DNA of 64,000 nucleotides from IMG/VR virus record IMGVR_UViG_3300025099_000016, positions 8,098 through 72,097 of that record; one strand, given 5' to 3'. The position numbers and the translations under genes were made by a program. The DNA is from a virus (Duplodnaviria > Caudoviricetes). The notes under the pieces are model-generated. The model was given only the letters and a program-made list of their open reading frames with translations, was not told the origin of the DNA and searched no databases. Positions 2,832 through 50,600 of this stretch are shown here, in pieces; positions within the stretch are counted from its first letter, which is position 1, and every line of letters starts with the position of its first letter.

Positions 2832-2853
2832 AATATTTTAATTTAAAAATTAA

Positions 2854-4047: not shown

Positions 4048-4068
4048 AATAAAATATTATATAATTAA

Positions 4069-6450: not shown

Positions 6451-6453
6451 AGT

Positions 6454-8963: not shown

Positions 8964-9492
8964 TTGTAATAAAATTATTCATAATTCTATACAGTCTCTC
9001 GCCATCTATAATAAACTCATATTCACTGTTAGGCTTGAATCCTACCAACTGTGTAGGTAGAAACTCACCATCAGAGTATTTAACTATACCGATTAAAGGT
9101 CTTTCTGTTTCTACAGAAAAGTTGTCTGTATTTTTTAAAGGCTTAACGAAAGTATAACCATTAACACATTCCCAGCTCATAGTTTTATACATGTATATCT
9201 GATCAGGGCTAGCAAGGTACTCATCCTCTTTTAAAAAACCTCTACTATTCTTCTCTCGCCCCTTAACGTCGTGCCATCTTCTAAATATATTATGGTGTAC
9301 TACAACTTCTTGACCTTTCTGTAGGTTATGTACATTGTCAATAGGAGTAGAGATAACAATAGCTTTACGATTAATATATCCATGATTAAATATCTCTGTA
9401 TTTAATATTAAGCTTTTGCCATCATCTACACTTACTGAATTGTTATATCTACCACCTAAAGGTTTTACTACATAATCATATAGAGGATTCAT
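8890..9492 (-). CDS. GroES-like (tandem beta-barrel) protein
   Basis: Starts MNPLYDYVVKP, resembling the GroES first strand (KPL.DRV.V); GQEVVVHH and GFKPNSEYEFIIDGERLYRI resemble GroES C-terminal strands. Confidence 0.5.
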   Translation of the reverse strand: MNPLYDYVVKPLGGRYNNSVSVDDGKSLILNTEIFNHGYINRKAIVISTPIDNVHNLQKGQEVVVHHNIFRRWHDVKGREKNSRGFLKEDEYLASPDQIYMYKTMSWECVNGYTFVKPLKNTDNFSVETERPLIGIVKYSDGEFLPTQLVGFKPNSEYEFIIDGERLYRIMNNFITIEYEHEGDEEEYNPSWAESSGRAN

Positions 9493-9716
9493 TAGTAGTT
9501 TAAATCATATTCAACCGATATAGCCATGTTCTTATTGAAATCCTTCCAAGGAATAACAATGTCTTTCTTCCTGATATAAATAGAGTACTTTTCTTCTTCC
9601 TCTAGTATATCACATATCGTATGACCACCGTAAACATCTTGACCAACAGAGTAATGCATTGCATCGTTCTTGTAATCTTTACCTACGGTGATTTTTCTAA
9701 TCACGTGACTTTCCAT
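9492..9716 (-). CDS. hypothetical protein
   Basis: ORF in the operon; ATG of MESHVIRK at 9716 preferred over the upstream GTG. Confidence 0.6.
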   Translation of the reverse strand: MESHVIRKITVGKDYKNDAMHYSVGQDVYGGHTICDILEEEEKYSIYIRKKDIVIPWKDFNKNMAISVEYDLNY

Positions 9717-11162: not shown

Positions 11163-11415
11163 CTACTAAAACTACATCTCTTAATCTAATAACTCTATAC
11201 ATCACACTATCATAATCTATATCGTGGCCAGCGTGCTTATCGTACATCACAACCGTATTGACTTTTATGATGTCCGCTAAGTTACCAACAGATACTACCC
11301 TAGCTTTCTTATACCTATTATCTGTATCTGTGTCGTCAGTAAGTAAAAGACCACCCGAAGTAGTCTTCTGCTCTTTTATTCTTTCTACAACTATATAATC
11401 ATTAACTGCCTTCAT
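11146..11415 (-). CDS. groES: co-chaperonin GroES
   Basis: MKAVNDYIVVE..TTSGGLLL mobile loop, ARVVSVG, YRVIRLRDV; adjacent to groEL. Confidence 0.9.
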   Translation of the reverse strand: MKAVNDYIVVERIKEQKTTSGGLLLTDDTDTDNRYKKARVVSVGNLADIIKVNTVVMYDKHAGHDIDYDSVMYRVIRLRDVVLVDEDNS

Positions 11416-26312: not shown

Positions 26313-26925
26313 AACCACACGGAATTTAGATTACTTACATCGTCGTAGAATAGTATACCGACGTGACCCAATAGAACCACCTGATTATGAAAATAGTCAG
26401 TACATGTTCTTTGAAAACGGTACATACCAAGCTTACGATTTATTTAAAGGTAATGCTAAAATAAATACTTATAAAAGTCTTAAATGGCATTTACTAGTAT
26501 TGTGGTATTTAAACCCAAAGCTAAACCCAGATGAGTTTAATAACTTAGCAGAGTTTATCGTAGATAAAGATAATGGCTTTACTACATTTAATATATCTAG
26601 TACAGGTTTAGAAAGGATTATACATGATGTATACATGTCTGATCTTGATCGACCACCTACAAATAGATTACGTAAAGTTGTATTTAAAATGAGTAACGGG
26701 CTTGAGAAACATGAAAAGTTAAGCATCGTGGGTAAATTAATAGGTAGATCAAAACGGATCCATTCTGATGACATTTATCAATGCATGATAGATATGAACG
26801 ATATGGGAAAAAAGATCACGATACGACGTCTAGCAGGCTTATTAGACTGTTCAGCACGAACAATACATCGCAACATGTGTAATGAATTGAAACGTGAAAA
26901 AGAATTATTAAATAGAAAAATATGA
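26305..26925 (+). CDS. HTH DNA-binding protein (candidate origin-binding or regulatory protein)
   Basis: C-terminal ITIRRLAGLLDCSARTIHR helix-turn-helix. Confidence 0.65.
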   Translation: MSQTTRNLDYLHRRRIVYRRDPIEPPDYENSQYMFFENGTYQAYDLFKGNAKINTYKSLKWHLLVLWYLNPKLNPDEFNNLAEFIVDKDNGFTTFNISSTGLERIIHDVYMSDLDRPPTNRLRKVVFKMSNGLEKHEKLSIVGKLIGRSKRIHSDDIYQCMIDMNDMGKKITIRRLAGLLDCSARTIHRNMCNELKREKELLNRKI

Positions 26926-27677
26926 AAAAATATAATGTACAGAATTATATTAGGTATAAAGAAGATGTAAAAGAAAGTATATCTAGGATAGAAGGTAAGT
27001 TCTGGAATGAATATACTAGAGAGGAATTAATAATAAAATTCTTACCACTAGTAGAAAATCTAGCTAGGAAATTTTCAACTTCTCAACAAGCATCTGGTGT
27101 AATGACAATTAATGATCTAATACAAGAAGGTAGTGCAGGCTTGATAGCAGCGGTAGATAAGATAGTATGGCCAAATATTACTGAATCAGAAGATCCTGAG
27201 AAAACTATTAAGTCTTTTTTCTCTAAACGCATACGTGGAGCAATACGTAGACGTATAGACATTAATAGAGGTAACATGCGTATACCTGAACATAAGCTGA
27301 ATGAGATACGTAAAGATTTTGGTGAAGATAAAAAAGCTGTAGAGATGTTTTTTAATTCTGTATTTCTTAGTTTAGACACTCCATTTAATGAAGATGGTTC
27401 AACCTATGATGTTCCAGACGAGTCTAAAGAATACAACTTAGACCTACTTGGTGCGTACATTAAAAGTTTAATGAATCAGTACTTAAACCACAAAGAATTT
27501 CAAGTGTTAAGACTGTCATTCGGTCTTGATTGTAAAAAACACTCAGCGAAAGAAATAGCATCTATTCTAGGTATGAAAGGTAATAGTTCTTATGTACGTG
27601 TTTCACAGTTAAAAAAGCAAGCAATAGGAAAATTAATAGACAACGTTCCTTACTCGCAAGTAGTTGATTATCTGTAG
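26922..27677 (+). CDS. phage sigma70-family RNA polymerase sigma factor
   Basis: Region 2 LVENLARKF..DLIQEG..GLIAAVDK..RIRGAIRR; LSLD; region 4 HTH SAKEIASILG..VRVSQLKKQAIGKL. Confidence 0.88.
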   Translation: MKKYNVQNYIRYKEDVKESISRIEGKFWNEYTREELIIKFLPLVENLARKFSTSQQASGVMTINDLIQEGSAGLIAAVDKIVWPNITESEDPEKTIKSFFSKRIRGAIRRRIDINRGNMRIPEHKLNEIRKDFGEDKKAVEMFFNSVFLSLDTPFNEDGSTYDVPDESKEYNLDLLGAYIKSLMNQYLNHKEFQVLRLSFGLDCKKHSAKEIASILGMKGNSSYVRVSQLKKQAIGKLIDNVPYSQVVDYL

Positions 27678-29621: not shown

Positions 29622-31334
29622 TTGATGGAGACAGTAGAGATCAATGGATTTTTGATTGACGAGTTCAATCAACATAGCTTGGAAGAAGGAAAAACGCAGG
29701 GGACTTGTCCCCTGTGTTCGTCTTCTAGGAAACCTGAGAATAGGAAAGCTAAATGTGCTTCTTATGATTGGGAACGTGGTCTCGGTACCTGTCATAACTG
29801 CGACACTAGTTTTCAGTTACATACATACAAACGTAAAGGTGAATCAACACGTGAATATGTGAAACCAGAAACGGAGGGCTACGTTGTATCAGAAAAGATT
29901 ACAAAGTGGTTCGATGAACGAGGTATATCTGAGCAAACCCTTATCGATCTTAAAGTTCGTGAAGGTAAAGAGTTCATGCCTCAAACTGGTAAACTTGAAA
30001 ATGCTATACAGTTTAATTATTATATGGGTATGGATCTCATTAATATTAAGTATAGAGACGGTCGTAAGAATTTTAAGTTATACAAAGGTGCAGAGAAGAT
30101 ATTCTACAATATCAACAGTGTTGTAGGATATGACTGGTGTGTTATCGTTGAGGGTGAGATGGATGTATTAGCATTCCATGAAGCTGGTGTTAAAAATGTA
30201 ATATCAGTACCAAACGGTGCAACACTTAACAGTAACAATTTAGATTATCTAGATAACTGTATTGATTACTTAGATGGTAAAGAGAAAATTATATTAGCAG
30301 TTGACGCAGATGAGCCTGGTCAAGCATTAAAACACGAGTTTATTCGTAGGCTCGGTGCTGAAGTTTGCTACCTAGTAGACTTTGGTAATGTTAAAGATGC
30401 TAATGATTTCCTACTACATTATGGTCCAGAAGAACTAAGAAACGTTATTACATATGCGTCTCAAGTTCCTCTTGAAGGTGTATCTACATTACGTGATGTT
30501 GAAGGTGAGTTGTTAGACTTTGTTCATAATGGTTTTAAACCTGGCTTTCAAGTTGGTTTAGAAAACTTTGATAAAATATTCTCTACGTATACTTCCCAGT
30601 TTATAACTGTAACGGGTATACCATCATCTGGTAAGTCGGACTTTGTAGATCAGATGTGTATAGGTTATAATAAAAACTACGGTTGGAAAACAGCTTATGC
30701 GTCTCCTGAGAATAAACCTAACTATTTACATGCGCATAAATTAATGCGTAAGACTTGGGAAGGTATGCCTACGAAAGCTGATGTCGGTACTAGTAAATGG
30801 AATCAGGTTACTGATCATGTTAACGACAACTATTTCTTTATAGATATGGATAGGTACACACTAGATGAAGTTTTAACTAAAGGCGGTGAACTAGTTAAAC
30901 GTAAAGGTATTAAATGCCTTGTTATCGATCCATATAATAAAGTTAGAGATACAAACTGTAAAACAGAAGATGTTAACAGGTACACTATGGAGTATTTAAC
31001 TAAGATAGAAGTATTTGCTAAGAAGTTTGATGTATTAGTTATTGTAGTAGCTCATCCTACTAAGATGTACAAAGACAAGGACGGTAAGATTGAAGAACCT
31101 ACTATGTACAATATCAAAGGTGGTGGTGAATGGTACGATGCTAGTTATCATGGACTACTTATTCATAGAGACTATGAAGCTAAGACTGTAAAAGCAAAAG
31201 TGCTAAAGGTTAAGTTTCAGAATCTAGGTGAGAATGGTGCTGAAGCACATTTCAACTGGGAACCTAAGTCTGGAAGTTACATACCTTTAGCTACTGATAC
31301 TATGCAAGACGAGCCAATGCCCTGGGAGAAATAA
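29622..31334 (+). CDS. primase-helicase (T7 gp4/Twinkle-like)
   Basis: CPLC..CHNC zinc domain, Toprim EGEMD..DAD, helicase GIPSSGKS, IDPYN, VAHP. Confidence 0.92.
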   Translation: MMETVEINGFLIDEFNQHSLEEGKTQGTCPLCSSSRKPENRKAKCASYDWERGLGTCHNCDTSFQLHTYKRKGESTREYVKPETEGYVVSEKITKWFDERGISEQTLIDLKVREGKEFMPQTGKLENAIQFNYYMGMDLINIKYRDGRKNFKLYKGAEKIFYNINSVVGYDWCVIVEGEMDVLAFHEAGVKNVISVPNGATLNSNNLDYLDNCIDYLDGKEKIILAVDADEPGQALKHEFIRRLGAEVCYLVDFGNVKDANDFLLHYGPEELRNVITYASQVPLEGVSTLRDVEGELLDFVHNGFKPGFQVGLENFDKIFSTYTSQFITVTGIPSSGKSDFVDQMCIGYNKNYGWKTAYASPENKPNYLHAHKLMRKTWEGMPTKADVGTSKWNQVTDHVNDNYFFIDMDRYTLDEVLTKGGELVKRKGIKCLVIDPYNKVRDTNCKTEDVNRYTMEYLTKIEVFAKKFDVLVIVVAHPTKMYKDKDGKIEEPTMYNIKGGGEWYDASYHGLLIHRDYEAKTVKAKVLKVKFQNLGENGAEAHFNWEPKSGSYIPLATDTMQDEPMPWEK

Positions 31335-31600
31335 TGTTTAAGAAGAAGAAAGCACCCTCCCGAAAAGCACCATTTTTACACCCATCTAAAGAGCAGTATA
31401 CTGCTTGGGCTTGGTGTGTAAATAATAATATAAGTATATGTGTATTACCCGACTGGAGTAATTCTGGTAAGTGGTTAGTTGAAATAACCATGAACGAAAA
31501 GGTTACGGTAGATCCTAATACTTATAACGGTGTAGAGGCTTTAACTAAGATGTACGAATACTGTAAATACTATAAAGACAAATATGAAAATACACTTTGA
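31334..31600 (+). CDS. hypothetical protein
   Basis: 88 aa, coupled to the nucleotide-modification cluster. Confidence 0.6.
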   Translation: MFKKKKAPSRKAPFLHPSKEQYTAWAWCVNNNISICVLPDWSNSGKWLVEITMNEKVTVDPNTYNGVEALTKMYEYCKYYKDKYENTL

Positions 31601-32225
31601 AAATGCAAATGAAGCTTACGAATACTACCATGATCGTATATTACAACATGGCATATCATTTGGTGATACAAAAGCCCTATTCAATATAGGGTTTTATTTA
31701 ACGAACCCATCCCTAAGGCAGATAACAAACCCTGAGCGTAAATGGAGTTTTGATTACGCTGAAGCTGAATGGCAATGGTATTTATCTGGCGACCCCAATA
31801 TAAGCAAGTTAGGTGAGATATATGGTAAAGTACCAGCTATATGGGAACGTATGGCAGATCAAAATGGTTATGTTAACTCTAACTATGGTCATCAGTGGAT
31901 GCGTCATGCACAGCTTGGTAATGTTATTAATATTCTTAGAGACAAGATGGAAACAAGACAAGCTGCTATAAGTATATACGATGGTAAAGAGATACATAAA
32001 TACGAGAATGACACACCATGTACATATGCAATACAGTTCACTATAATTGGTGGTAAGCTATGTATGTCAGTATATATGCGATCTAACGATTTGTGGTATG
32101 GCTTTTGTAATGATCAATACCAGTTTTCGCAACTACAAGAGTTGGTTGCATCAATGCTAGGTATTGAGATAGGTTGGTACTATCACCATGCGCACAACTT
32201 ACATTTATATAACGATAAGATATGA
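31584..32225 (+). CDS. thymidylate-synthase-fold enzyme, most like T4 gp42 dCMP hydroxymethylase
   Basis: EWQWYLS..P.IW..NSNYG, catalytic PCT, MRSNDLWYGFCND (Asp at the base-specificity position), HNLHLY. Confidence 0.75.
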   Translation: MKIHFENANEAYEYYHDRILQHGISFGDTKALFNIGFYLTNPSLRQITNPERKWSFDYAEAEWQWYLSGDPNISKLGEIYGKVPAIWERMADQNGYVNSNYGHQWMRHAQLGNVINILRDKMETRQAAISIYDGKEIHKYENDTPCTYAIQFTIIGGKLCMSVYMRSNDLWYGFCNDQYQFSQLQELVASMLGIEIGWYYHHAHNLHLYNDKI

Positions 32226-33010
32226 AATATAAATTATACCACATACCCGGTAAGAAGATCGGTGTAACTCTCGACCCTAAACATAGGGTGGAGACTCAGC
32301 AGGGTTACGGTCCTGGTGAGTATGAAATACTAGAAGAATCTAACGATATAGATTATATATCGCATCGTGAGATTGAACTACAGAGAAGTCACGGTTATCG
32401 TGTAGACGAAACCCTTTATAAACAATTAAACCCTAATAAAGATCATATGAGAATAAATATAACAGAGCAGACTACAACATTTCCAGTACCTTTAAACAAG
32501 TTAAAAGGTCGACTTATGGATAATATAGGTATGGTTATACAAACTGGCTTTAATCGCCATGAGTTAGACACTGATTTAGTAGACTGGATAATGAAACACG
32601 CTGTTACATCTCAGTTTAACGAAGATCGTTGCTATGTATATAACAAAGCAATGTCCAACTTTAGATCAGCTACATTAGATAATACACACCATAATGGTGC
32701 TACATATATAGCGGCTGATATGTTTACTAAGATTAGACGTTGGGCATACGAACGTGGTATATACGATCATGGTGATTCTAAAACGCAGTATGTTAAGTTA
32801 ATGGAAGAAGCTGGTGAATTAGCTGAAGCATTACTTAAGAACGATAAACCAGAGATTATAGATGCAATTGGTGATATGGTTGTTGTATTAACTAATCTAG
32901 CTAAATTAGAAAAGTTAGATATAGAAGATTGTATAGAGAACGCTTATGAAACTATATCAAAGAGAACAGGTAAAATGATGAATGGAACTTTTGTAAAAAA
33001 CACATTATAA
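32222..33010 (+). CDS. fusion: GIY-YIG-like N-terminus plus C-terminal MazG-like NTP pyrophosphohydrolase
   Basis: LYHIPGKKIGVT..R..REIE; KLMEEAGELAEA..DAIGDMVVVL. Confidence 0.7.
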   Translation: MKYKLYHIPGKKIGVTLDPKHRVETQQGYGPGEYEILEESNDIDYISHREIELQRSHGYRVDETLYKQLNPNKDHMRINITEQTTTFPVPLNKLKGRLMDNIGMVIQTGFNRHELDTDLVDWIMKHAVTSQFNEDRCYVYNKAMSNFRSATLDNTHHNGATYIAADMFTKIRRWAYERGIYDHGDSKTQYVKLMEEAGELAEALLKNDKPEIIDAIGDMVVVLTNLAKLEKLDIEDCIENAYETISKRTGKMMNGTFVKNTL

Positions 33011-33352
33011 ATGAGCAGTAGAGAAATTATGGATTCTAAAAACGGGGTATCAACTAGAAGTATGCAGTTTAGAGACCCTATAGTAGAGAATGTTTGCGAT
33101 AAATTCTTACGTCGATCAGACATGGGTTATGAAAAGTATGGTCGTACATTACACAACGAACGTACCGGTAAACATAAAGACTTACTAGGTTATCTAAATG
33201 ATATACAAGAAGAACTAATGGACGCGATACTTTATATTCAAACGGCTCGTGAAGAGATGATGGAGCAAATGCAAAATCAACGTATGAATGTGATAGGGCA
33301 GAATGGAAATGACGGAGAGCATTATGAAAACACGCCGGACTCGGACTACTAA
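33011..33352 (+). CDS. all-alpha NTP pyrophosphohydrolase-like protein
   Basis: RSDMGYEKYG..YLNDIQEELMDAILY (ExxD acidic helix). Confidence 0.5.
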   Translation: MSSREIMDSKNGVSTRSMQFRDPIVENVCDKFLRRSDMGYEKYGRTLHNERTGKHKDLLGYLNDIQEELMDAILYIQTAREEMMEQMQNQRMNVIGQNGNDGEHYENTPDSDY

Positions 33353-33785: not shown

Positions 33786-33934
33786 TAACAGGTTGGGAAA
33801 TAAGTTTAGGATTATATCCAGGTGTACTACTTGGGTTTAGATCGTACATAGAAAAAAGTATAGAGAATCACGTTTTATATATACCGTTTATAGATATATG
33901 TTTAACTATAGAACGTGAATTTGATGAAGAGTAA
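33782..33934 (+). CDS. small hypothetical protein (50 aa)
   Basis: Translated by hand (MITGWEISLGLYPGVLLGFRSY..); coupled on both sides. Confidence 0.55.
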   Translation: MITGWEISLGLYPGVLLGFRSYIEKSIENHVLYIPFIDICLTIEREFDEE

Positions 33935-34904
33935 TATATTTGAGAAAAGGGTTAACATACTACCGTATCAATACCCACAGCTACTAGACTATAAGGATGC
34001 CATTCGGCATTCTTATTGGATAGATACTGAGTTTAATTTTACCGATGATATACAAGACTTCAAGGTAAACATTAGTGATAAAGAGAGAGATATAATCAAG
34101 AAGACTATGTTATCGATAGCTCAAATAGAGGTAAGTGTTAAAACTTTCTGGGCTGATATGTACAAGCGAATGCCTATAACTGAAATTGGTGATGTAGGTA
34201 TGACGTTTGCTGAGTCTGAGGTAAGACATAAAGATGCATATGCTAGACTGCTACGTATTCTTGGTCTTGAGAAAGAGTTTGAAACTGTAGTGGGAGTACC
34301 AGCAATTGATAAACGAATAAAGTATCTGACTAAATACTTGGATGGCACACGATCTAAAGATAATAAGATGTATACTAAATCAGTATTATTATTTTCATTA
34401 TTTATAGAGCACGTTAGTCTGTTTAGTCAATTCCTAATAATGATGTCTTTCAACAAGAACAATAACGTACTCAAAGGCATATCCAATGTCGTTGAAGCAA
34501 CATCTAAAGAGGAAGAGATACACGGTAATTTCGGAGTTGAGATTATCAACATCATCAAGAAAGAAAACCCTGAGTGGTTCGATGATGAGTTTCAAGAGTT
34601 AATTAATTCAGCGTGCTTAAAGGCTTATAAAGCTGAGTGTGGAGTTTTAGACTGGATATTCGAAACTGGTGAATTAGACTTCTTAACTAAAGAAACGATA
34701 CAAGAATTCATCAAGAACAGATTTAATAATTCACTAAACAAAATAGGGTATGAGTCTATATTCGAAATCGAGGAAGGGCTCCTCGCTAGTACCAAATGGT
34801 TTGATGTTGAAATTACAGCTACAAAAGAAGGTGATTTCTTCTATAAAAAATCAATTGATTACAATAAGAAAAGTAAAAGTATAACTGTAGATGATTTGTT
34901 TTAA
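33924..34904 (+). CDS. nrdB: ribonucleotide reductase class I beta subunit
   Basis: QIE..ESEVRH..AY, IEHVSLF, EEIH di-metal motifs. Confidence 0.92.
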   Translation: MKSNIFEKRVNILPYQYPQLLDYKDAIRHSYWIDTEFNFTDDIQDFKVNISDKERDIIKKTMLSIAQIEVSVKTFWADMYKRMPITEIGDVGMTFAESEVRHKDAYARLLRILGLEKEFETVVGVPAIDKRIKYLTKYLDGTRSKDNKMYTKSVLLFSLFIEHVSLFSQFLIMMSFNKNNNVLKGISNVVEATSKEEEIHGNFGVEIINIIKKENPEWFDDEFQELINSACLKAYKAECGVLDWIFETGELDFLTKETIQEFIKNRFNNSLNKIGYESIFEIEEGLLASTKWFDVEITATKEGDFFYKKSIDYNKKSKSITVDDLF

Positions 34905-36529
34905 TGGAGTATAAAAAATATTATTGGCTCAATAAAGAGTCTAGGTTGTTTCTGTCTAGAGGTTATATTACAGAAACACCCGAACAAAGAATAAAGGATA
35001 TAGCTAACACAGCGGAAAAGTATTTAAAGATCGAAGGCTTTGCTCAGAAATTTGAAGACTACATGGCAAGGGGTTTTTACTCCTTGTCCACCCCGGTGTG
35101 GATAAACTTCGGTAAAAATAAAGGTCTACCGATTAGTTGTTATGGTTCGAACATCGATGATAACCTAGATTCAATTTTAAATGCGTCTAGGGAGATCGGT
35201 ATGATGTCGAAATACGGAGGAGGAACATCAGCATACCTCGGGAATATAAGACCACGAGGAACGTCGATTTCAACTGGTGGTAAAGCTGACGGTCCGGTAC
35301 ATTATGCACGTATGTATGATACCACTGTCGATGTCTGTAAACAAGCTGAAGCTAGGCGTGGAGCTTGTGCTGTATACTTGCCTATAGAGCATGATGATGT
35401 AAACGAGTTTCTAGATATTGGTACTGAAGGTAATCCTATTCAGAATTTGCAGTACGGTATTACTATTACTGATGACTGGATGAAGAGTATGATAAGTGGC
35501 GCTAAACGTAAACGCGAGACTTGGGCTAAAGTTATACAAAGAAGATCTGAGTTTGGTTTTCCTTATATAATGTTTAAAGATAACTCCAACAATAATACAC
35601 CTTACAAAGAGTTAGGTTTGAATATTACAGCATCAAACTTATGCTCTGAAATTCAATTGCCAACCGACAGTTATAACTCATTTGTTTGTTGCTTAGGTTC
35701 GATTAACTTGTTACACTGGGAAGAGATAAAACATACTGACGCTATAGAAACGTACGCACATTTCTTGAATGCGGTAATGGATGAGTTTATAAATAAGTCT
35801 TCAATACTACCTGGTCTTGCTCGCGCACACAGATTTGCTGAGCAACACAGAGCAATTGGCATTGGTGTTATGGGTTATCATTCCTTATTACAATCTAAAC
35901 TGTTAGAGTTTGATTCTCTGGCTTCAAAAGGTTTGAACAACGAAATATTCAAGACAATAAAACAACGATCAGAGGATGCATCTAAATGGCTACACGATTA
36001 TAAAGGCTATAATAGTCTACGGGAAGGATTTGCTAACACAACTCTTATGGCTATTGCACCAACAAAATCTAGTTCCTTTATTCATGGTGCTGTCAGTATG
36101 GGGATCGAGCCTATTAAATCTAATTACTTTATTAAAGATTTGGCTAAAACGAAAACTGTCTACAAAAACCCGTTCTTAGAAGCTGAATTAGAAGAGTATG
36201 ATTTGAATACTGAAGAAGTTTGGGAAGGGATATTAAAGAAGGATGGGTCAGTGCAACATTTAGATTTCCCTACTAAAGAAGTGTTTAAGTCTTTTGTGGA
36301 AATAGCACCAAAGGAATTAGTGTTACAGGCCGCACAACGACAAAAGTACATAGATCAATCACAGAGTTTAAACCTTATGATTGATCCTAGTATACCTGCG
36401 AAGGATATTAATCAATTATATATTTATGCTTGGAAAGAGGGCGTGAAAACTTTGTACTATCAATTCAGTCAAAGTTCAGCTCAAGCATTCAGTAGAAATA
36501 TATTAGAATGCTCTTCATGTGAAGGTTAA
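34904..36529 (+). CDS. nrdA: ribonucleotide reductase class I alpha subunit (no ATP cone)
   Basis: ISCY, RRGACA, SNLCSEI, VCCLGSINL, APTKSSS, YY, C-terminal CSSC. Confidence 0.95.
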   Translation: MEYKKYYWLNKESRLFLSRGYITETPEQRIKDIANTAEKYLKIEGFAQKFEDYMARGFYSLSTPVWINFGKNKGLPISCYGSNIDDNLDSILNASREIGMMSKYGGGTSAYLGNIRPRGTSISTGGKADGPVHYARMYDTTVDVCKQAEARRGACAVYLPIEHDDVNEFLDIGTEGNPIQNLQYGITITDDWMKSMISGAKRKRETWAKVIQRRSEFGFPYIMFKDNSNNNTPYKELGLNITASNLCSEIQLPTDSYNSFVCCLGSINLLHWEEIKHTDAIETYAHFLNAVMDEFINKSSILPGLARAHRFAEQHRAIGIGVMGYHSLLQSKLLEFDSLASKGLNNEIFKTIKQRSEDASKWLHDYKGYNSLREGFANTTLMAIAPTKSSSFIHGAVSMGIEPIKSNYFIKDLAKTKTVYKNPFLEAELEEYDLNTEEVWEGILKKDGSVQHLDFPTKEVFKSFVEIAPKELVLQAAQRQKYIDQSQSLNLMIDPSIPAKDINQLYIYAWKEGVKTLYYQFSQSSAQAFSRNILECSSCEG

Positions 36530-41386: not shown

Positions 41387-44245
41387 TTATATGAAACTTG
41401 AATCAAAATCATCTGACCAGTTAGATACTGTATTGTTTTTATGTTGAGATTTTGTTGCTTTATAATTCTTTTTTATTTCACTCAATTCTAATGGTCTGTT
41501 GTACCATTTCACATCATCCACGATAGAAGAAGATCTGTAACCTGTATTTAATTCGTAATTATCACCAATATGCAAATCGCGAGTTTCATCAACAGTTCCA
41601 TCCGGTGTAACACTACTTATTAAATTTTCGTTAATATATAATTTAAGACTAGTATCTAATGCGTAAGTAACAGTCACATACAGCCAATCATTTTCAACTA
41701 TAGCTTCTGTGGTGTGTACTTGATACCTATTCACATCAGTGTTAATACTTGCATATACTCTTGGATAAAGACCGTCTGGTTTAAATATAGTTGTACCAAA
41801 ACCTTTGTCTGATGCGTGATTATTAACTGCAGTCCCCTTAGTAACTAACCATTGTCGTGTATTTACATCTCTACAATTAACCCAAAAACTAGTACTAAAA
41901 CCACTAGACATATTAAAGTCATTATCATCATCAACAGTAACGTAGCTATCTCCGTCAAAGTTTAAACCTTTCTGTCTAACCTTATTCATAGGTAAACCGA
42001 AAGTATCCTTCTTAAAGTAAGGAACCTCTTGAAGCTGTATTGTTGTTGGCGAACCATTGACAGTACCATCATTTCCGTATGGTGATAGATCAACCCAAGT
42101 GTCAACACCGTTATTTCTCCAGTAACCGTTCAACTGTACTTCTCTTAATGAAAGGTTATCTATCGAAAACTCAGAAGCATTAACACCATACATGTAAACT
42201 TGAATATCATCACCTAGTGCTACAACTCTATAATTGTATACACCATTTTCACTAAAGTTGTCAAGATTATCACTAGTTCCTGCAATATTAAACTGGTTAA
42301 AACCAAATTGAAAAGCACCTTTGACGTAGTCGCTAATCTCAAAGGTTAAATCATATATCTTACCTTGTGTGACGCTTAGTACTTGTCTGAGTGCGGTATC
42401 AGTAGCGTTTACAGAGGCTTTACCACCACTAACAGTCCATCCTGTATTAGGGCTCCATTTGTTAGCGTCATCAAACCCTCCGTCGTTAACTATCTCACTA
42501 CCTAAGAAAGCACTATGGTCTCTACAATCTAAAGCCATACCAGCGTTGAATATCTCTTGGACTTCGGTCACGGATAACACCTTCTTAAATACAGAGATCT
42601 CATCTCCAAATCCATCAAAGTCTTTCATGAATCTCAAAGTGTCATCACAGGTTGTGTCAACACCATCAGCATCACTAATATCCTTTTCGTCAACTAGCAC
42701 TCCGTCTAAGTAAAGCTTAAAACCTGTTGATGTAGATTTATCTATAGTTGCAACCACGTGATACAATTGTCCTACGTCAAGAGTTGGGGTTGGAATATTT
42801 ACAGACGAACCCCAATCAAACAAAGCTTGCATGGTACCATTAGCCATCATCCTAAACTCAAAACCTTCTTCGGGGGAAGTATTATTTCTTAAATCAAACA
42901 GGTTTTTGTAATCTTCAAATGTGTTAACAGAGAACCAGCATGAGACTGTAAAGCCATCATCTAAGACATCATTAAGACCTGTCCCACAATCAACGTATTC
43001 ATCAGCCGCACCATCGAACAATGCTTTCTTAGAATAAGATGACATAGCATATTGTGGGATATATGGTTGAGCTGTTTTCCAGTTATCAGAAACCCAAGAA
43101 GCTTGGATATGGGAATTAGATAGGGATATTTCCTGCAACTTCAACGTTGTTATTGTAGTTGTTCCAGCACTATTATTTTTTAAATAAGTTTGGACGTGAG
43201 TAGCTTTAAAAACAAAAGTAGAAGAGAACTCTCCATCCGAGGAAATAGTGTGGTAAACATCGCTGTTACTCGCGTTCCTAAATTCAAGACCATTTCCAGA
43301 CGAAGTACTAACAGTACCTGCGATGGTAACTTTATAAGTGGAACCAACAGTAACATTACTCTTATAAATACCACTAGCCTGATATGTAGTAAAAGTGTTA
43401 GCATCATCTGCCTTTGTATCATCAAGTATTTGCCACTCATTTTTAAAGTGGTAATCTTTAGTTAAATCCTCTCCTAAAACTGGGGCTGCGTTATACACTC
43501 TATCTCCAGCACCTTCGTTTAATCTATATAAAGCTTTACAGTCTGTTGTTTCAATACTACTGTTAGAATTATCAAATACATCTTTATCAGGGTTATTGTA
43601 GTCATAAGTAACATCTGAAGCTGTCCAAGCTTTATCGTAGATTTGGAAGTCTGACAACTTGCCATACCAAATGCTACTAGCAACATCACCCTGAGAGCCA
43701 ATGTACACGCCATTATCATCTAGAGTAAAACTACTCGTAGCCGTCTTACTGAAAACAAATTCACCATTAAGATATACACTACAAGTTAAACCATCAACTA
43801 CCGCTACAGCTCTATACCAAGTGTCATTTGCTACTGAAGGTAGAGCCCCGGATGTTACGTCATCCCCCCATTCAGAATCGTTCCAACCTAAGTCTAATTT
43901 AGCACTCTTAGTAGCAAGGTAGAACCAATCGGCAGTAATCGCTGTTCCAAATATAAAACCTCCGTAACCAACATCCTCAGAATTAAACCACACAGCAAAA
44001 GTTGCCTTAGTGCTAACACTTATAGCTTCAGATTTCCAATAATCTATATCTATGTAGTCATTAGCTTGAGCAAAATGAAGTGCTTTACCAGAATATAAAA
44101 CACCGTCGTTTGTATTAGGAGAAAAGTCTTTAACCCCCCCTAAAGGAGCTTGAGTCTCGTCAGCTTTATACCAAGCTTGTAGACCTCTACGAACGACATT
44201 AGCAACTTTGCTACCTGCCGTAACCATGTTACCAATACCTAGCAT
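41387..44245 (-). CDS. LamG/concanavalin-A-like multi-domain tail spike or fibre
   Basis: Three LamG-type units (WYRAVAVVDG..VYLNG; LYHVVATID..LYLDG; WLYVTVTY..LYIN; .DE/D..Y..L). Confidence 0.8.
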   Translation of the reverse strand: MLGIGNMVTAGSKVANVVRRGLQAWYKADETQAPLGGVKDFSPNTNDGVLYSGKALHFAQANDYIDIDYWKSEAISVSTKATFAVWFNSEDVGYGGFIFGTAITADWFYLATKSAKLDLGWNDSEWGDDVTSGALPSVANDTWYRAVAVVDGLTCSVYLNGEFVFSKTATSSFTLDDNGVYIGSQGDVASSIWYGKLSDFQIYDKAWTASDVTYDYNNPDKDVFDNSNSSIETTDCKALYRLNEGAGDRVYNAAPVLGEDLTKDYHFKNEWQILDDTKADDANTFTTYQASGIYKSNVTVGSTYKVTIAGTVSTSSGNGLEFRNASNSDVYHTISSDGEFSSTFVFKATHVQTYLKNNSAGTTTITTLKLQEISLSNSHIQASWVSDNWKTAQPYIPQYAMSSYSKKALFDGAADEYVDCGTGLNDVLDDGFTVSCWFSVNTFEDYKNLFDLRNNTSPEEGFEFRMMANGTMQALFDWGSSVNIPTPTLDVGQLYHVVATIDKSTSTGFKLYLDGVLVDEKDISDADGVDTTCDDTLRFMKDFDGFGDEISVFKKVLSVTEVQEIFNAGMALDCRDHSAFLGSEIVNDGGFDDANKWSPNTGWTVSGGKASVNATDTALRQVLSVTQGKIYDLTFEISDYVKGAFQFGFNQFNIAGTSDNLDNFSENGVYNYRVVALGDDIQVYMYGVNASEFSIDNLSLREVQLNGYWRNNGVDTWVDLSPYGNDGTVNGSPTTIQLQEVPYFKKDTFGLPMNKVRQKGLNFDGDSYVTVDDDNDFNMSSGFSTSFWVNCRDVNTRQWLVTKGTAVNNHASDKGFGTTIFKPDGLYPRVYASINTDVNRYQVHTTEAIVENDWLYVTVTYALDTSLKLYINENLISSVTPDGTVDETRDLHIGDNYELNTGYRSSSIVDDVKWYNRPLELSEIKKNYKATKSQHKNNTVSNWSDDFDSSFI

Positions 44246-44598: not shown

Positions 44599-44629
44599 TA
44601 TAATATTACATGCTACGTAAACAGTTTAC
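44599..44629 (-). promoter_or_regulatory. class L promoter candidate
   Basis: Minus strand GTAAAC-N17(ending TGTA)-ATATTATA. Confidence 0.5.
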
Positions 44630-47600
44630 TGGTGTGCGTAACATCTTTTGTTTTTCCTTTCCGTTATGTTCTTACACCGAGGACCTTTACCGCCTCTAGT
44701 ATTTGCTTTACATCTATATTCTTTTTTACCGTCACCATCTAAATCGTCTCCATCTTTCCTGTTTTTCTCTGCCTCAGCTCTCTTTCTTTTGTTCTCTTTC
44801 TTTTTATCTTCACTTTCAGCTTTCTTCTTACCCGCTCTCTCTTGCTTAACTTTAGCTTTAGCCTCCTCTAGCTCCTTGTCTTTAACATCTAAACTCCACT
44901 TATCCCAACCAGCTATTAAAGCTACTCGTTTCCAAGTCTCGTGGTTACTATTTATAGCTTCCTCTAAGTTCTGAGCTTTCCTAACAACTCTGGCTAAAGG
45001 AACGTTTGTTGTGGCTTCAACAAGGTTACCGATAACGTTTAGTATAGGATTATCTATATCTAACCCCATTTTTTCTGGCACATCTTTGTTATACTCATAA
45101 CTATATATGGCAGACATTATTTTCCTAAGTTTACTACCTATAGGTGGGGATAATTGTACTGCTTCAATTGCTACTTTAGATAATTCTCTCTTACCGTAAG
45201 GCTTGTCTCTTTCTTCTAAATACTTCATGATAGTATTCTTAAGAGTGGAAGCCATAGCACCATACACGCCAGTACCTCTTAACAAAGTATCTAAAGCTCC
45301 ATTAGCTACACGTGTTGTTTTAGTTTTAGTCTTTTCTTCATCTTCATCTCCACCGAACAATAAAAACGCTAAACCAGTTTGTAAGCTACCGAATATAACA
45401 TTCTGCATAGCACCATAATATAATATCCTAGACACATGAGACTTCCAGTCACCCCTACCATTAACTAAATCTGATATTGCTTTCTTAGTTAGTCTAGTAT
45501 ATTGCATCGGAGTGTTTTGCCAAGCTAATACTAATCTACCTAACGTCCCAGCTTGTTGCTGAGATATAAGGTCAGGTCTAGAAGATTGTTGTGTTTCTTC
45601 TGCGATCTCTTGGAATTGATCGAAAGCTTTTGTTTCAGCCTCTTTCTGACTTAATCCTTCTTTAATATATTTGTTTATCTTATTTCTGTAATAAGTCGCG
45701 CCACCAGATGCTATAGCGAAACTATCCGCGATCTGTGTAGGTGTGAAACCTATCTGAAGCAAATATCTAACAGCGGCTTTGTATTTATCTTTCGCACCAC
45801 TCTTAGCTACAGTATTACTTAGCTCCGATAAGTTTACATCAATAGACATACCAGACCTACGCTGTTTTAACATGTCTGAATTAAACAACGTTATAAAATC
45901 TTTCCAATATTGAGGTTGGTTAGCGAAAGCTTTAGCCGCTTGGAATATATTATTATCTCCCCAATCTATAAAGTTAACCGTGGATAGGGTTTGAAGCATC
46001 GCTGATCTAGTGTTAAAGAACATAACAGCACCAACAGACCCGTTGATCCAGTCCATAAAGCCATTTACTACTTTATCTTTTTTACCAGTAACTCTGTTAC
46101 TACCAGTTTCCATACGGTATAACATATTCTCTAAAGCATCTCTAAAGTCTGTACCATAAACAGCCTCTATCTTATTCATGTTTTCAGGTGAAAATATAAT
46201 GTCTACATTATCTTTCCATTCAGACAAGAACTCAGCTCTATTGGTCTGGCTAGATTGCCCAAATAAATCTGAAGCTATATTCCCAACAACCCAATTTTCG
46301 TCAGGTGTCACGTAACCGTCCTTAGCTCTAGATATTATACCTAAAGTATCAGCAAATGCTTTTGTTTTAGGATCGTTATTAACGTGGTCAGACAATAGTT
46401 CAATTTCGTTTTCTGATATACCTGGTATATCTATACCACTCTTGCTCCACAAGTAAACTCTTATCGCATCATTAACAGTGAAGTCAGTTCCAGACACGTT
46501 TTTATTGAGATTTTTGATAACCGTTGGCATCTCTTTTTTCAAAGTTTTAAACTCTTCAGAAGTTCTTTGCTTAGCAAAGTTCATATCTCTAATACCCTTA
46601 GCGAATGGATCTAATAAATGTTCTTTAAAGAAAGCCATGTCGGCATCACCTTGTTTACCCTTGCCCAGGAAGTTGTAAAGTAAACCTTTAAAATCCTCAG
46701 CTGATGGTGGAACGAAGAATTTCTTTAAAATACCACCATCTACCTTCTTACCTCTTAATCTAGCTTGAGCATCGGAGAACACTTTACCTATAGGTACACC
46801 AGAGCTTCTTTCAAGTATATTATTGAAGTTAGCCGCACCATCTTGACTGAACTTAAGTTTAGCTTGTACTACTTTAGATTTAATATCTAATTGATCTAGT
46901 ACATCTTTAACAGCTTTAACGTTTGGCAAAGCATCATCAACAAAGTACATGTCGTTATAACCCTCAGCAAATTTCTGTAACATCCATTGACCCTTAGCTT
47001 CACCTTCACTCTTGCCTAAGCCAGTTATATTTCTCAAAGGTAAATCTACACCTTGTGTTTTCAACCACTGCTGTATAGGCCCAGCTGAAGCTTGTTGTCT
47101 AGCTGTAAGTATGAATACATTTTTATTACCGTACTTAGCTATTTGATTTTTTAGTTTCTGAAGTAGAGGACCTTCCTTTCCACCACGAACATTTGCAAAA
47201 TCAGAGAAATCGAACTCATACCCAGCGGCTGCATATTCAGGACCTTCGATCGGCCATTCTTCAGACGTTATCTTAACCTGTTGTTTAGTAACTGGGTCTG
47301 TAGCGACAACGAAGTTTTCACCACCAATAATAAGTGTTTCGTCAAAGTCAAATGTAGACATACCTTTTGAGTTGGCATTATCAAATCTAACTTCACTAAA
47401 CTTGTCTATTTTGCCAATAAAATTTCTTGGTAAAGGTTGATCTTGCTTTAGATTATCAGTGTTTATTTCAACAAAGTTTACGCCTAACTCTTTAAATCTT
47501 TTTTTATTCGCTTGAATAGATTTATAACTATTCTTCACAGCGGTATTAGTTAGAATTCTTTCAGGTCTAGCTTTATTTCTAGCTAAAGCAGTTTCTAAAG

Positions 47601-50600
47601 AAGAGTCAACAAATATAATTTGAACATCATATCCAGCTTGCTTGAACTCTCTAACAGATCTTTCTACACCAGCCTTTTGAGCTCCGGTACTATGTGTGAC
47701 AATGCTCTTACCAGTTTCTCGTTGTTTTGCTTTAAGCTTATCAAGATCTGCACTAGAGTCATATTGTAAATTCCAAAATTTTTCCGACTGCTCTCTAGTG
47801 AACTCATTCATATCTTTTGGTAACCCGGCTTTTTTAATACCTTTTTCTAAAGCGATATCAGGATTCATTACTTCAAACCCTTGATCTTTTAAACCAAGTT
47901 TTTTAATTATAGTGGACTTACCAGATCCTGAAGCACCAACAACTAATATAGCTTTTCTATCTGGTACTATTCTTTGGATATTACCATCGGTGCTATTTCT
48001 AACGACTTCTCTAGCTTTTCTAGTGTTGTCTAAGTTCTTGATGTCAGCTTCATTAGCTATTAATCCAACTTCGCTTATAGCGTCTACATATTCAGATGCC
48101 TGCTCTCTAGTTATCTTACCGGTTAATATCTCTGATATTAAATTATTCTGTACATCGACTAATGCCCTAACTTTAGTCTTGCTCATACCTTTAGTATCTA
48201 TACCTACCTTAAAGTATTCAGGTATAGTCATGTTCTTAGATGGTAAGAAATAGTTATTTAAGTTTATACCACCCTTAGCGTATCTTATCATCGACGCCAT
48301 ACCAAGGTCTAACCAAGGTAGTTTATCATCTAATATAGCGGGTACTACCTCTTCCCAGAATTCATTAGGCATTGAGTCAACTAAGCTTTCTCTAAGTATA
48401 TTCCCATCCTTATCTTTAATAGCTTTTAGCATGTTATCATCAACTTGAGTTAATGACAACTGAACAAACGCTGCTTTAGCAACTTTCAATACATTATCTA
48501 TAGGTGTTTGATTTATTGCTGCACTTAAAAACATTGTGCCGATATTGTTTTGGGGCATAGAATGCTCCTCCCTCATCTCAACATCATAATGCAACTTACC
48601 ATCCTTATAGTACACACCGACTAGAGAAGCTGAAGTTCTAAATATGGCATCACCATTACTACTAGCGTTAGTAACAAATCTAGCAAAGAACCAAGCATCA
48701 TCTGGATTATTCTTTAAATGTTTCTGCACGTCAGTAAACATTTTAGCTAGGAAGTCTATTTTTTGTTGTTCAAACTCGAAAAATTCTTTCCCACTTAACT
48801 CTTGCTTACCAACGATAAACTTAACCTCACCGTTCTTTTTAACTACTCTTTTAGGATCAAGTTTTTGTGTACTGTGAAATCTGAATCTCTTTAAGAAGTT
48901 TGGCAACTCGTACCTTCTCATCCCAGCTAGTTCGTCAAAAACATCCTTAACACCAAACATACTTTTCCCTCGCCCGTTAGACATACCAACTCTAAATAGA
49001 GTAGCATAGACAGGATCAAGATCAGCCATTGTTTTAATTATTCTAGATGTTTCTTCACCTAAAGTTTTATCTCTACCTACTTCTCTACCTATCTGTACTA
49101 GTGATTCAAAATTAATTAAAGTTACAGGTACTTCTCCTCTAGTTCTACTAACCTTAGTGCTGACTATTTTAGCTACCTTGCTCAATAATGGATCAGTTAT
49201 ACCAGCATCTTTAAGTATATGCCTAGACTCCATATTAGCATACTTCTTAAGTTCTCTAGAAACACTAACAGCATCTTCACTAAACATAACAGGTGACTTA
49301 CCACTAGCCATTTGTTGTACAGTTGTGGCTTGAGTATCATCTTGCATTAGAACCTCTCTAATGGCTTGATTTGACATAGCCCTATCTAACTGTTTAGCTA
49401 AAGCTAAAACCCTCGAGGATGTGTTCCTATCGTCTCTCTGTGGCTTACCATCTATAATACCGAATACCTCTAAAAACTCTGTTCTAGTTATATTAGGTTT
49501 TTTAGATTGAGCAGTCAAACCAGCTTTGGTTTTCTCTCTCTTAGATTTTTTATTATAGAACTTATCTAATAAAACTTTTTGAACACCTGTCGCTGTACCA
49601 TCTTCAGTCGCACCTTCAGGTAACATTGATTGTAGCATGTCAGCGTTCTTAGCTATAAACATCTGAGCGTTAGCTAACTCTGGTTTACTAAGATTAGCAT
49701 TACTAGTTATTTTCTTGGAAGGTATACTCATTAACTCACCAACAGTCTCAGTAGCTATGTTAGGTGTTTTCTTATATGTAGTACCTGTAAGGTCGTTGTC
49801 TTTAACGTACTGCTTAGCTTTAGGTGCTATCTTATCTCTAACCTTTAATCTGTCAGCTAGAACAATACCTTTTCTTTTAGGACCAGATTGTTTAATACCT
49901 TCTTCAGTGGTAACGCTTTCAGCTTGTTTTGCTATACCTTCGTCAGTCATTGACTTGGTGGCAGTGTCTTGAACCCCTCTTTTAGCCATCACCTCTTTTG
50001 CTCTTTGAGGTAAGAACTGATTAATGTAGGCTGCAACGTTTTGATACTTGTGTTTTGCTGGATTAAAATCTTTAACTAATCCTAATACAGTTCTAGCTTT
50101 TGCTTTATCGGTACCGGGATCATATAGTATGTCAGCTATTATATCTTCTTTATTATCTAGTAAGTCATTTCTAATATCTTCTGTCTGTGCATTAGCTAAG
50201 GCTCTACTAAATATATTCTCAGCCATACCTCTATACTCCATAGCTATAACTCCAGAAATATCATCTTTCATTCTAGCCATCATCTTTAAATCAGCTTCAG
50301 TCTTTATTTCTTTATTTTGAATATCAAGTATGGGTTTATATAAATCTTGCACCCTCTCTGAAGCTTCAACGTCTATAGATTCTTTTGGCTCCACTGTGGT
50401 ATCAGTATCTTCAGTCACACCAGCCGTTAATTCTCTACCTATTTTTATACCTTCTAACGATGCTTTTGTAAACGCTTTATTTCTACCAAACATGTTGCTC
50501 TTAGCATTCATATCAGTTATAAAGTTTAAAACATCTTCAGCCGTGTTAAGCTCTACGTTTTTCATACCTGACGCTTGTAGTATTCTACGTATAGGTGATT

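Follow-up and report, generated by a model that had tools for sequence, protein, structure and literature searches.

Does a phage gene whose homologues are labeled 'thymidylate synthase' by their database sources make thymidylate, or does it supply a modified cytosine for phage DNA? The gene in question lies in a 64,000-base window, by which we mean the whole stretch of DNA analyzed; the window covers bases 8098–72097 of the 72,097-base IMG/VR viral record IMGVR_UViG_3300025099_000016, which is rated complete by CheckV. The gene is described as follows.

31584..32225, plus strand: ThyA-family enzyme of 213 amino acids, predicted to be a deoxycytidine monophosphate (dCMP) 5-hydroxymethylase of the T4 gp42 type in a minimal form, from Pfam and Protein Data Bank (PDB) matches, signature residues, tree, and AlphaFold2 (AF2) model

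An initial annotation of the window had read the protein as a dCMP hydroxymethylase and had left its DNA product as either 5-hydroxymethyl- or 5-methylcytosine. The first proposal was supported in silico by Asp177, Asp143, the Ser-x-Tyr motif, Asp169, the tree, the fold, and a MazG-type partner gene, and the second was narrowed toward the hydroxymethyl base by Asp143, the missing C-terminal tail, and a tree position away from phage Xp12. We consider it likely that the gene encodes a folate-dependent dCMP 5-hydroxymethylase of the T4 gp42 kind, and that the cassette to which it belongs puts 5-hydroxymethylcytosine (5hmC), apparently free of sugar, in the phage DNA. The parts of this reading differ in strength. 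From residues, fold, and clade, the protein is predicted with high confidence to form 5-hydroxymethyl-dCMP (5hm-dCMP). Modified cytosine in the virion DNA is reasonably probable, and complete replacement of cytosine is put forward tentatively. The 'thymidylate synthase' label is most likely wrong.

The open reading frame (ORF) is present as annotated, and the membership of its product in the ThyA family is far beyond chance. The protein matched Pfam Thymidylat_synt (PF00303) with an E value of 6.5e-25 and 88 bits (cut-off 24.3 bits) and PHROG thymidylate-synthase families with E values down to 1.5e-39. Among PDB sequences, the best match was the CMP hydroxymethylase MilA (1.7e-25); thymidylate synthases matched at 1e-16 and weaker, and T4 dCMP hydroxymethylase (dCH) at 7.9e-11. 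No other PF00303 gene occurs in the complete genome. Because neither ThyX nor a dCMP deaminase was found in the genome, the gene does not appear to belong to a dTMP pathway.

The protein was aligned with 93 representative homologues and with fetched sequences of E. coli ThyA, T4 gp42, RB69 Td, RB69 gp48, SPO1 gp29, and the ViI, phiW-14, and Xp12 homologues. Its own numbering equals E. coli numbering from residue 143 on. The residues at positions 143, 146, 147, 167, 168, 169, and 177 are, in that order:

213-residue protein: D C T S N D D
T4 gp42: D C T S N D D
E. coli ThyA: L C H S C D N
dUMP hydroxymethylases (SPO1, ViI, phiW-14): D C N S x D N
RB69 gp48 (5-hydroxy-dCMP synthase): E C T S Q N D
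Xp12 homologue: N C P S S D D

The protein is identical to T4 gp42 at all of the published diagnostic positions (Cys146, Asp143, Ser99-x-Tyr101, Asp177, Asp169, and Ser167/Arg125), and at one or more of them it differs from ThyA, the dUMP hydroxymethylases, the 5-hydroxy-dCMP synthases, MilA, and the Xp12 enzyme. The initial annotation had turned on an Asp at the position of Asn177 in ThyA, and this assignment is secure, with no gap between Arg166 and residue 177 in the protein, ThyA, or gp42. The motif quoted for this region, MRSNDLWYGFCND, was found exactly at residues 165–177, and the comparators given for it, QRSCDVFLGLPFN in E. coli ThyA and MRSNDVVFGFRND together with INSNYG in T4 gp42, agree with the alignment of the fetched sequences. 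The other quoted motif is right in all of its named elements, with NSNYG at residues 98–102, but its spacing had been compressed: YLS and P.IW are separated by 15 residues rather than 2, and IW and A by 3 rather than 2. Three published discriminators beyond those used in that annotation are the Asp three residues before the catalytic Cys, the Ser-x-Tyr motif, and the retained Asp169.

The base-specificity residue Asp177 (Asp179 in T4, Asn177 in ThyA) is invariant in the 93 representative clusters and in 81 orthologues. The substitution N177D gives an enzyme with dCMP as substrate, L143D/E leads to hydroxymethyl products, and D169N is the mark of the flavin-dependent 5-hydroxy-dCMP synthases (PMC13326640). 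In environmental virome data, contigs whose cytosine is physically modified are associated above all with Asp177 and with position 147 (PMC8670742). The catalytic Cys146 (Cys148 in T4) is aligned in the protein. Asp169 is invariant in the representative clusters, Cys146 and Ser167 are nearly so, and all three are invariant in the 81 orthologues. Asp143 (Asp145 in T4) lies within the motif NDTPC and is kept in 91 of the 93 representatives and in all 81 orthologues. The NSNYG motif is that of T4; at least 98% of orthologues keep its Ser99 and Tyr101, and ThyA has Val at the Ser position. In the ternary complex of T4 dCH, an Asp three residues upstream of the Cys together with Ser-x-Tyr constitutes the signature of hydroxymethylation: Asp145 activates the substrate water, Ser94 and Tyr96 hold the catalytic water, and the D145N, S94N, and Y96F variants are inactive (PMC6400193). 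The deoxyribose-type pocket is also complete, with Ser167, Arg125, His207, and Tyr209. The ribonucleotide preference of MilA needs Ala176 and Lys133′, and reversion of these to Ser and Arg yields a dCMP enzyme (PMC5175136).

The marks of the other ThyA-family enzymes were sought at the same positions. In place of the canonical ThyA features Asn177, Leu143, His147, and a C-terminal tail (55 residues after Tyr209), the protein has Asp177, Asp143, Thr147, and 4 residues. It lacks Asn169 of the 5-hydroxy-dCMP synthases, which is present in RB69 gp48 and OLIVR5 gp242. MilA-type Ala176, Lys133′, and the five-helix C-terminal domain are represented by Ser167, Arg125, and no such domain, and the Asn at the base-specificity position and Asn147 of the dUMP hydroxymethylases by Asp177 and Thr147.

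An AF2 model of the 213 residues had a pLDDT of 97.7 and a pTM of 0.93. Foldseek matched the model to MilA with a TM score of 0.91 and a root mean square deviation of 1.8 Å, to the dCMP hydroxylase structures 9iqc and 9iqu with TM scores of 0.84–0.88 (0.88 for 9iqc), to ThyA with about 0.8, and to T4 dCH with 0.77–0.78. The predicted fold thus appears complete despite the absence of a C-terminal extension. The end is short by comparison with the Xp12 enzyme, T4 dCH, and RB69 gp48, which have 61, 28, and 12 residues after Tyr209, respectively. All 81 orthologues have 4–9 residues after Tyr209, and 22 of the 93 representatives have at most 20. Pairwise dN/dS across the orthologues was about 0.1, with dS near saturation. 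Because the short end is conserved across orthologues and representatives, we regard it as a natural minimal form, a structural variant and not a truncation or a catalytic feature. In ThyA the folate is covered by the C-terminus; the folate site of T4 dCH, which has no such closure, is more open (PMC5175136); the absent tail fits hydration rather than reduction of the reaction intermediate. We also considered a split or frameshifted gene with its C-terminus in the next ORF. This is ruled out by a stop in the −1 frame just before the downstream ATG and is countered by the conservation of the terminal sequence HLYNDKI in the orthologues and by the complete fold of the model.

A tree of 106 rows, MilA not among them, was inferred with an IQ-TREE quick search under LG+C20. 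The protein falls in a series of nested clades, namely a marine clade (SH-aLRT 99), a 21-row clade with BF503P2 gp42 (95), and a 64-row clade with T4 gp42 (97). Outside the clade shared with gp42 lie the dUMP hydroxymethylases, whose three anchors form a clade of their own within a group supported at 96, the 5-hydroxy-dCMP synthases (99), Xp12, and ThyA, in agreement with the initial annotation. This placement is supportive, not decisive, because the gp42 branch is long and MilA is missing from the tree. A separate observation concerns Agathobaculum phage AB434P2 gp7 (2860–3522), which is annotated as a deoxyuridylate hydroxymethyltransferase. Its residues Asp177, Thr147, and Asp143 and its grouping with the dCMP enzymes make a misannotation of the substrate probable.

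The genes around the ThyA-like gene were compared across 80 related IMG/VR loci out of 558 matching ones; apparent new neighbor clusters that were alternative frames of ribonucleotide reductase (RNR) genes were ignored. The relevant neighbors in the window are the following.

29622..31334, plus strand: Toprim primase/DnaB-like helicase fusion (Pfam Toprim_2 3.4e-12, DnaB_C 2.2e-08)
32222..33010, plus strand: T5orf172-like/MazG fusion of 262 amino acids (Pfam MazG 5.3e-08, PRA-PH 3.7e-07; PHROG MazG-like to 1.2e-33)
33011..33352, plus strand: conserved 113-residue protein, third gene of the cassette, with the motif RS..G..KYG.T ... QEE[LI]MDA.LY
33915..36529, plus strand: class I-type RNR, small subunit of 329 and large subunit of 541 amino acids (Ribonuc_red_sm 5e-57, Ribonuc_red_lgC 2.6e-96)

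In 76 of the 80 loci, the gene that immediately follows the ThyA-like gene is that of the MazG fusion. In the window its start overlaps the hydroxymethylase stop (ATGA), and we describe the pair as translationally coupled. Its C-terminal ~110 residues form a MazG/PRA-PH domain of the all-α nucleoside triphosphate (NTP) pyrophosphatases, which matched the MazG-like structure 1vmg at 3.1e-07 and in which the metal motif EExGE...E..D, aligned to 1vmg, is intact. The N-terminal ~150 residues are T5orf172/GIY-YIG-like; the Pfam T5orf172 match is weak (E 0.16), and Atlas feature matches of 0.95–0.97 were to clusters in which 11–48% of members have T5orf172. By analogy with the T4 gp56 dCTPase and with other phage enzymes, the fusion is predicted to convert dCTP to dCMP. 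In phage S-2L, MazZ supplies the deoxynucleoside monophosphate (dNMP) substrate of a base-replacement pathway, feeding PurZ (PMC8342488); a marine phage MazG prefers dGTP and dCTP (PMC6850273); and genes for Asp177 ThyA homologues co-occur with PRA-PH domains in environmental phage contigs (PMC8670742).

The 113-residue ORF follows the MazG gene in 68 of 80 loci, and 22 of its columns are invariant in 30 orthologues. It has no Pfam family and no match in Foldseek or to PDB sequences, and its PHROG matches are to families of unknown function only. AF2 modeled it as a small helical hairpin (pLDDT 66). The QEELMDA helix raised the idea of a second all-α NTP pyrophosphatase, which found no support: hhalign against the MazG domain gave a probability of 0.4%, Pfam, Foldseek, and PDB gave no match, and Atlas led only to unnamed viral clusters. 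Downstream are a DUF1064 resolvase-like gene and then the small and large RNR subunits. RNR homologues occur in about 50 of the 80 loci; RNR is context that supplies deoxyribonucleotides upstream of the pathway and not a specific part of the cassette. The primase-helicase precedes the ThyA-like gene in 73 of 80 loci; no other replisome enzyme was recognized in the genome.

The cassette genes co-occur in all six complete genomes that carry them. No ThyA-family gene was found in any of six sequenced relatives (phi38:1, phi46:3, phi19:3, elemoB, Gundel_1, and MW202828). Both domains of the fusion are present in 6/6 cassette genomes, and its N-terminal domain in 0/6 of these relatives, two of which match the MazG C-terminal domain distantly and over a short stretch. 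Because the relatives lack both the ThyA-family gene and the N-terminal domain of the fusion, we take the cassette to be an accessory module of one sub-lineage. In four or five related contigs (including L075, at 383–3091 on the plus strand, and L059), three genes for two uncharacterized ~307-residue proteins and a pyridoxal phosphate (PLP)-dependent PALP-family enzyme (Pfam 1.9e-10) stand between the primase-helicase and the ThyA-like gene; the window has no such insert. In those relatives, the PALP-family insert might serve to modify the hydroxymethyl base further.

If cytosine is modified in the cassette phages, selection against restriction sites that contain it should be relaxed. Maximal-order Markov z-scores of palindromic sites were compared between the six complete cassette genomes and the six relatives without the cassette, with sites classed by the cleavage of T4gt (5hmC) DNA by commercial enzymes (Table S1 of PMC7653180). 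The blocked 4-mers were GATC, CCGG, GGCC, GCGC, CATG, ACGT, and TGCA, and the still-cut 4-mers TCGA, AATT, and TTAA.

Seven blocked 4-mers, mean z per genome: cassette −1.3 to −2.9; no cassette −2.8 to −6.4 (Mann-Whitney p 0.004)
GATC z: cassette +0.3 to −4.3; no cassette −7.5 to −17.6 (complete separation)
CCGG z: cassette +0.1 to −1.3; no cassette −2.0 to −5.9 (complete separation)
Still-cut 4-mers TCGA, AATT, and TTAA: no difference between groups (p 0.82)

The cassette genomes have largely lost the avoidance of GATC and CCGG but retain that of GATATC and TCGA, at which 5hmC DNA can be cleaved. In four of the six there are 0–1 EcoRV sites (GATATC) against 18–24 expected. EcoRV and TaqI cut 5hmC DNA completely; on glucosylated T4 DNA, cleavage by EcoRV is very partial and that by TaqI complete (PMC7653180). 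The avoidance pattern is the one expected if the cytosine of cassette phages is modified, and it gives indirect support to the protection of their DNA at cytosine; the test cannot separate 5hmC from 5-methylcytosine (5mC). As to GATATC itself, the genome containing the window has one site against 21 expected (z −5.4), three related genomes have none, and four relatives without the cassette avoid it similarly, with 1–5 sites each. These counts suggest that these Flavobacteriia hosts commonly exert EcoRV-like restriction pressure.

These elements can be assembled into a pathway. RNR would make dCDP, which would become dCTP, and the MazG domain would most likely hydrolyze dCTP to dCMP, both feeding the enzyme and keeping ordinary dCTP out of phage DNA. 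Cys146 would attack C6 of dCMP while Asp177 reads the N3/N4 face of the cytosine, and methylene-tetrahydrofolate would give its one-carbon unit to C5. The intermediate would then be hydrated to 5hm-dCMP and not reduced to the methyl product, because Asp143 and Ser99/Tyr101 would hold a water at the exocyclic methylene and there is no C-terminal tail to close the site for hydride transfer. Phosphorylation of 5hm-dCMP could fall to a host enzyme or to an unrecognized phage enzyme, after which the host nucleoside diphosphate kinase would form 5hm-dCTP for incorporation by the host replisome with the phage primase-helicase. The resulting 5hmC DNA would escape many (Type II) restriction enzymes, a known way of countering restriction that would here take a pared-down form.

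Several observations weigh against this account. The whole case for a hydroxymethylase and for modified DNA rests on sequence. T4 gp42 sits on a branch of 2.28 in the tree, the ~28-residue C-terminal segment of T4 dCH is not present in the protein, and C-terminal truncations of MilA are insoluble (PMC5175136). The last concern is offset because the short form is conserved and models confidently and because RB69 gp48, with a 12-residue tail, is active. In the site analysis, the six cassette genomes are close kin and so represent few independent events, and the two groups have different hosts. A difference between the groups is also seen for the class of AT-only palindromes (p 0.002); cassette genomes continue to avoid CATG, a site blocked on 5hmC DNA; and the phage studied here keeps a mild avoidance of GATC (z −4.3, 188 observed and 242 expected). 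BLASTP found no significant similarity between the putative dCTP-hydrolyzing MazG domain and T4 gp56 dCTPase. No phage DNA polymerase was recognized by a family-A search and PHROG scans, and therefore incorporation of the modified dNTP would require its acceptance by a host polymerase. Searches of the genome with PF21448 (DNMK), PF02223 (Thymidylate_kin), and an OLIVR5 kinase query, together with a Walker A scan, revealed no dNMP kinase, and ThyA homologues expressed in E. coli without their cognate kinase yielded only traces of modified base (PMC13326640).

The kinase searches gave the same result more widely: PF21448 and PF02223 were also unmatched in the near-complete to complete relatives searched. 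Within the genome there is no free-standing P-loop kinase; the Walker A scan picked out the primase-helicase, PhoH, a chance site in Erf, and an AAA_33/zeta-like domain of a 2992-residue protein and nothing else. PhoH does not belong to the pathway, as just two of the six cassette genomes have it. The AAA_33/zeta-like domain was rejected as the pathway dNMP kinase, being unique to this genome among the six.

How far might the base be altered after 5hm-dCMP is made? It could be decorated further by unrecognized proteins, such as the 113-residue partner or other early gene products, to give a hypermodified cytosine. Most known 5hmC and 5hmU phages do add a group after replication, one protein of the cassette is strictly conserved but of unknown function, roughly half of the early genes lack annotation, and the PLP-enzyme insert of L075 and L059 is a hint in the same direction. 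However, the statement in the initial annotation that no glucosyltransferase is visible holds genome-wide in Pfam and PHROG scans of nearly all ORFs longer than 90 residues, and these scans revealed no glycosyl-, carbamoyl-, amino-acyl-, or other transferase, DNA kinase, radical SAM enzyme, or PLP enzyme. The helical hairpin predicted for the 113-residue protein matches no enzyme fold, and the persistent avoidance of GATATC and TCGA is as expected for plain 5hmC. We therefore regard further decoration as unlikely.

The missing kinase and polymerase would also fit a pathway that acts on the nucleotide pool only, with the enzyme and MazG draining dCTP and dCMP against host replication or defense and no meaningful incorporation of the product; a kinase was needed in E. 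coli for substantial incorporation of a related product (PMC13326640). This is quite improbable. The phage replicates a genome of 36% G+C, and draining its dC precursors without using the product would hurt the phage itself. Moreover, the relaxed avoidance of GATC and CCGG argues for DNA that is protected at cytosine, and the metagenomic MetaGPA study ties Asp177 ThyA homologues to physically cytosine-modified contigs (PMC8670742).

A dCMP methylase that would give 5mC DNA, as in Xanthomonas phage Xp12, is compatible with the restriction-site pattern to the same degree as a hydroxymethylase, and Asp177 alone turns thymidylate synthase into a dCMP methylase (Liu and Santi 1992; Hardy and Nalivaika 1992; both as cited in PMC8670742). 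We hold this to be very improbable. The published hydroxymethylation signature is made up of Asp143, Ser99, and Tyr101, and the D145N variant of T4 dCH forms no product (PMC6400193). The tail that closes the thymidylate-synthase site is reduced to 4 residues, against 55 in ThyA and 61 in Xp12, and the Xp12 enzyme, with N143 and P147, branches outside the clade next to ThyA. General scans revealed no dihydrofolate reductase, although no search was aimed at that enzyme. The least probable of the alternatives is another ThyA-family chemistry (a 5-hydroxy-dCMP synthase, a MilA-type CMP enzyme, a dUMP hydroxymethylase, or a true thymidylate synthase), for although MilA is the best sequence and structure match, 9iqc and 9iqu superpose well, and the sources' label names a thymidylate synthase, Asp169 is invariant where 5-hydroxy-dCMP synthases have Asn, Ser167/Arg125 replace Ala167/Lys126′ of MilA (alignment numbering) and its C-terminal domain is absent, Asp177 and Thr147 stand where the dUMP enzymes have Asn (at 177 or beside it) and Asn or His, and the tree, in which MilA itself is not included, separates these classes from the protein.

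The dCMP 5-hydroxymethylase reading is best appreciated beside T4 gp42 (EC 2.1.2.8; PDB 1B5E and 6A9A). The two proteins share the ThyA-family fold, a supported clade, and residues D143, C146, T147, R166, S167, N168, D169, D177, S-N-Y, E62, H207, and Y209, and both phages have an all-α NTP pyrophosphatase gene, gp56 in T4 and the MazG type here. However, the identity to gp42 is only about 25%, and the C-terminal residues of gp42 have no counterpart. By the genome scans, the phage studied here also differs from T4 in having no gp1-type dNMP kinase, glucosyltransferases, or phage DNA polymerase, and in its pyrophosphatase a MazG/PRA-PH domain is joined to a T5orf172-like one, with no detectable similarity to gp56. 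MilA, from mildiomycin biosynthesis (PDB 5JNH and 5B6D), shares the Asp143, Cys146, and Asp177 chemistry at about 31% identity but differs in its ribonucleotide preference (Ala176/Lys133′), its five-helix C-terminal domain, and its role in making an antibiotic and not DNA precursors. RB69 gp48 and HY126 AfhB (PMC13326640; PDB 9IQC and 9IQU) resemble the protein in the ThyA fold, Asp177, an acidic residue at 143, a short C-terminus, and good superposition; they differ in having Asn169 and in using flavin and O2, whereas the protein keeps Asp169 and Gly173 and sits in another clade.

The closest cultured-phage protein is gp42 of Bacteroides phage BF503P2 (WAX07047.1), with 44% identity, a place in the 21-row clade, the same signature, and 17 residues after Tyr209. 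It is annotated as a deoxycytidylate 5-hydroxymethyltransferase, an annotation that carries no experiment in the record. BF503P2 differs in having a second Asp177 ThyA homologue and a dUTPase and in lacking an adjacent MazG. Its two ThyA homologues are at 6121–6927 and 9001–9681, with the dUTPase gene between them, and gp36, one of the two, has diverged strongly and carries Leu in place of both the catalytic Glu62 and Gly173.

The MetaGPA contigs (eLife 2021, PMC8670742) share with the cassette an Asp177 ThyA homologue, variation at position 147, and co-occurrence with PRA-PH/MazG. There, the link to physically modified cytosine in virome DNA is experimental. MetaGPA drew on sewage and coastal viromes and followed a carbamoyltransferase branch; the marine clade described here has no carbamoyltransferase or deaminase partner and, as far as we have seen, was not described in that study. 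The rule that Asp177 ThyA homologues mark cytosine-modified phages is thus already published. New here are the anchor-based signature table, the tree, the absence of the genes from sequenced relatives, and the restriction-site contrast. It is credible that the protein represents a minimal member of the dCMP hydroxymethylase branch, lacking the C-terminal extension, in a system devoid of the T-even kinase and transferases.

A bolder proposal, which we consider doubtful, is that a widespread clade of marine Flavobacteriia podoviruses replaces cytosine with bare 5hmC by means of a three-gene cassette alone, without a kinase, polymerase, or glycosyltransferase of its own. Host kinases and the host replisome would then handle the modified nucleotide, and one part of the cassette would have a new function: the GIY-YIG-like domain might attack unmodified DNA selectively in a manner coupled to dCTP hydrolysis, or the 113-residue protein might be an unrecognized kinase or a specificity factor. 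If the predicted modification is real, a common marine phage group (558 IMG/VR contigs and thousands of proteins from Tara and other ocean metagenomes at 80–95% identity) would carry 5hmC. The cassette would be the leanest hmC pathway known and a compact candidate tool for the in vivo production of hmC DNA. Library preparation that relies on restriction or other enzymes, and the calling of methylation, may give different results with such genomes. The automatic label of 'thymidylate synthase' auxiliary metabolic gene would be wrong, and there would be a bearing on phage-host arms races in Bacteroidota, including those that involve modification-dependent nucleases. Biologically, this would extend the T4 paradigm and the MetaGPA result in an expected direction and would not be a new principle.

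Ocean metagenomes very commonly contain the cassette sub-lineage. Among database matches of the ThyA-like protein, the best 120 have 81–95% identity, with Tara among the sources. Terminase similarity groups the phage with podoviruses of marine Flavobacteriia (Elemovirus, Callevirus, and Pachyviridae) and with the uncultured Manatee Spring virus, and no nucleotide-level relative was found in the phage collection. We infer a marine Bacteroidota-type (Flavobacteria-type) host and membership in a podovirus group with genomes of about 60–80 kb. The ORF at the end of the window (60819–63998, minus strand) resumes at the start of the record (3–4679, minus strand) to give ~2618 residues when joined, with no Pfam match to either half. 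Because this ORF runs off one end and continues at the other, the record, though listed as 'linear', is a circularly permuted whole genome.

A few other genes of the window deserve mention. GroEL-like (11402–12967, minus strand; PHROG 6.8e-137) and GroES-like (8890–9492, minus strand; PHROG 2.9e-11) genes lie beside those for terminase and portal. A sigma-70-family protein is encoded in the early/replication module (26922–27677, plus strand; PHROG RNA polymerase sigma factor 2.3e-26, with weak Pfam matches to regions 2 and 4). The 951-residue protein encoded at 41387–44245 on the minus strand has three C-terminal Laminin_G_3/concanavalin-A-like lectin repeats (Pfam 1e-46) and is probably a receptor-binding fiber. 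The AAA_33/zeta-toxin-like P-loop kinase domain (Pfam 5e-10) occupies residues of about 1882–2026 in the 2992-residue virion protein (44626–53604, minus strand). By tblastn, this kinase segment is present in 0/5 of the other cassette genomes and the adjacent HAD-like segment in 5/5; the domain is a recent insertion in the virion protein, unrelated to the cytosine pathway.

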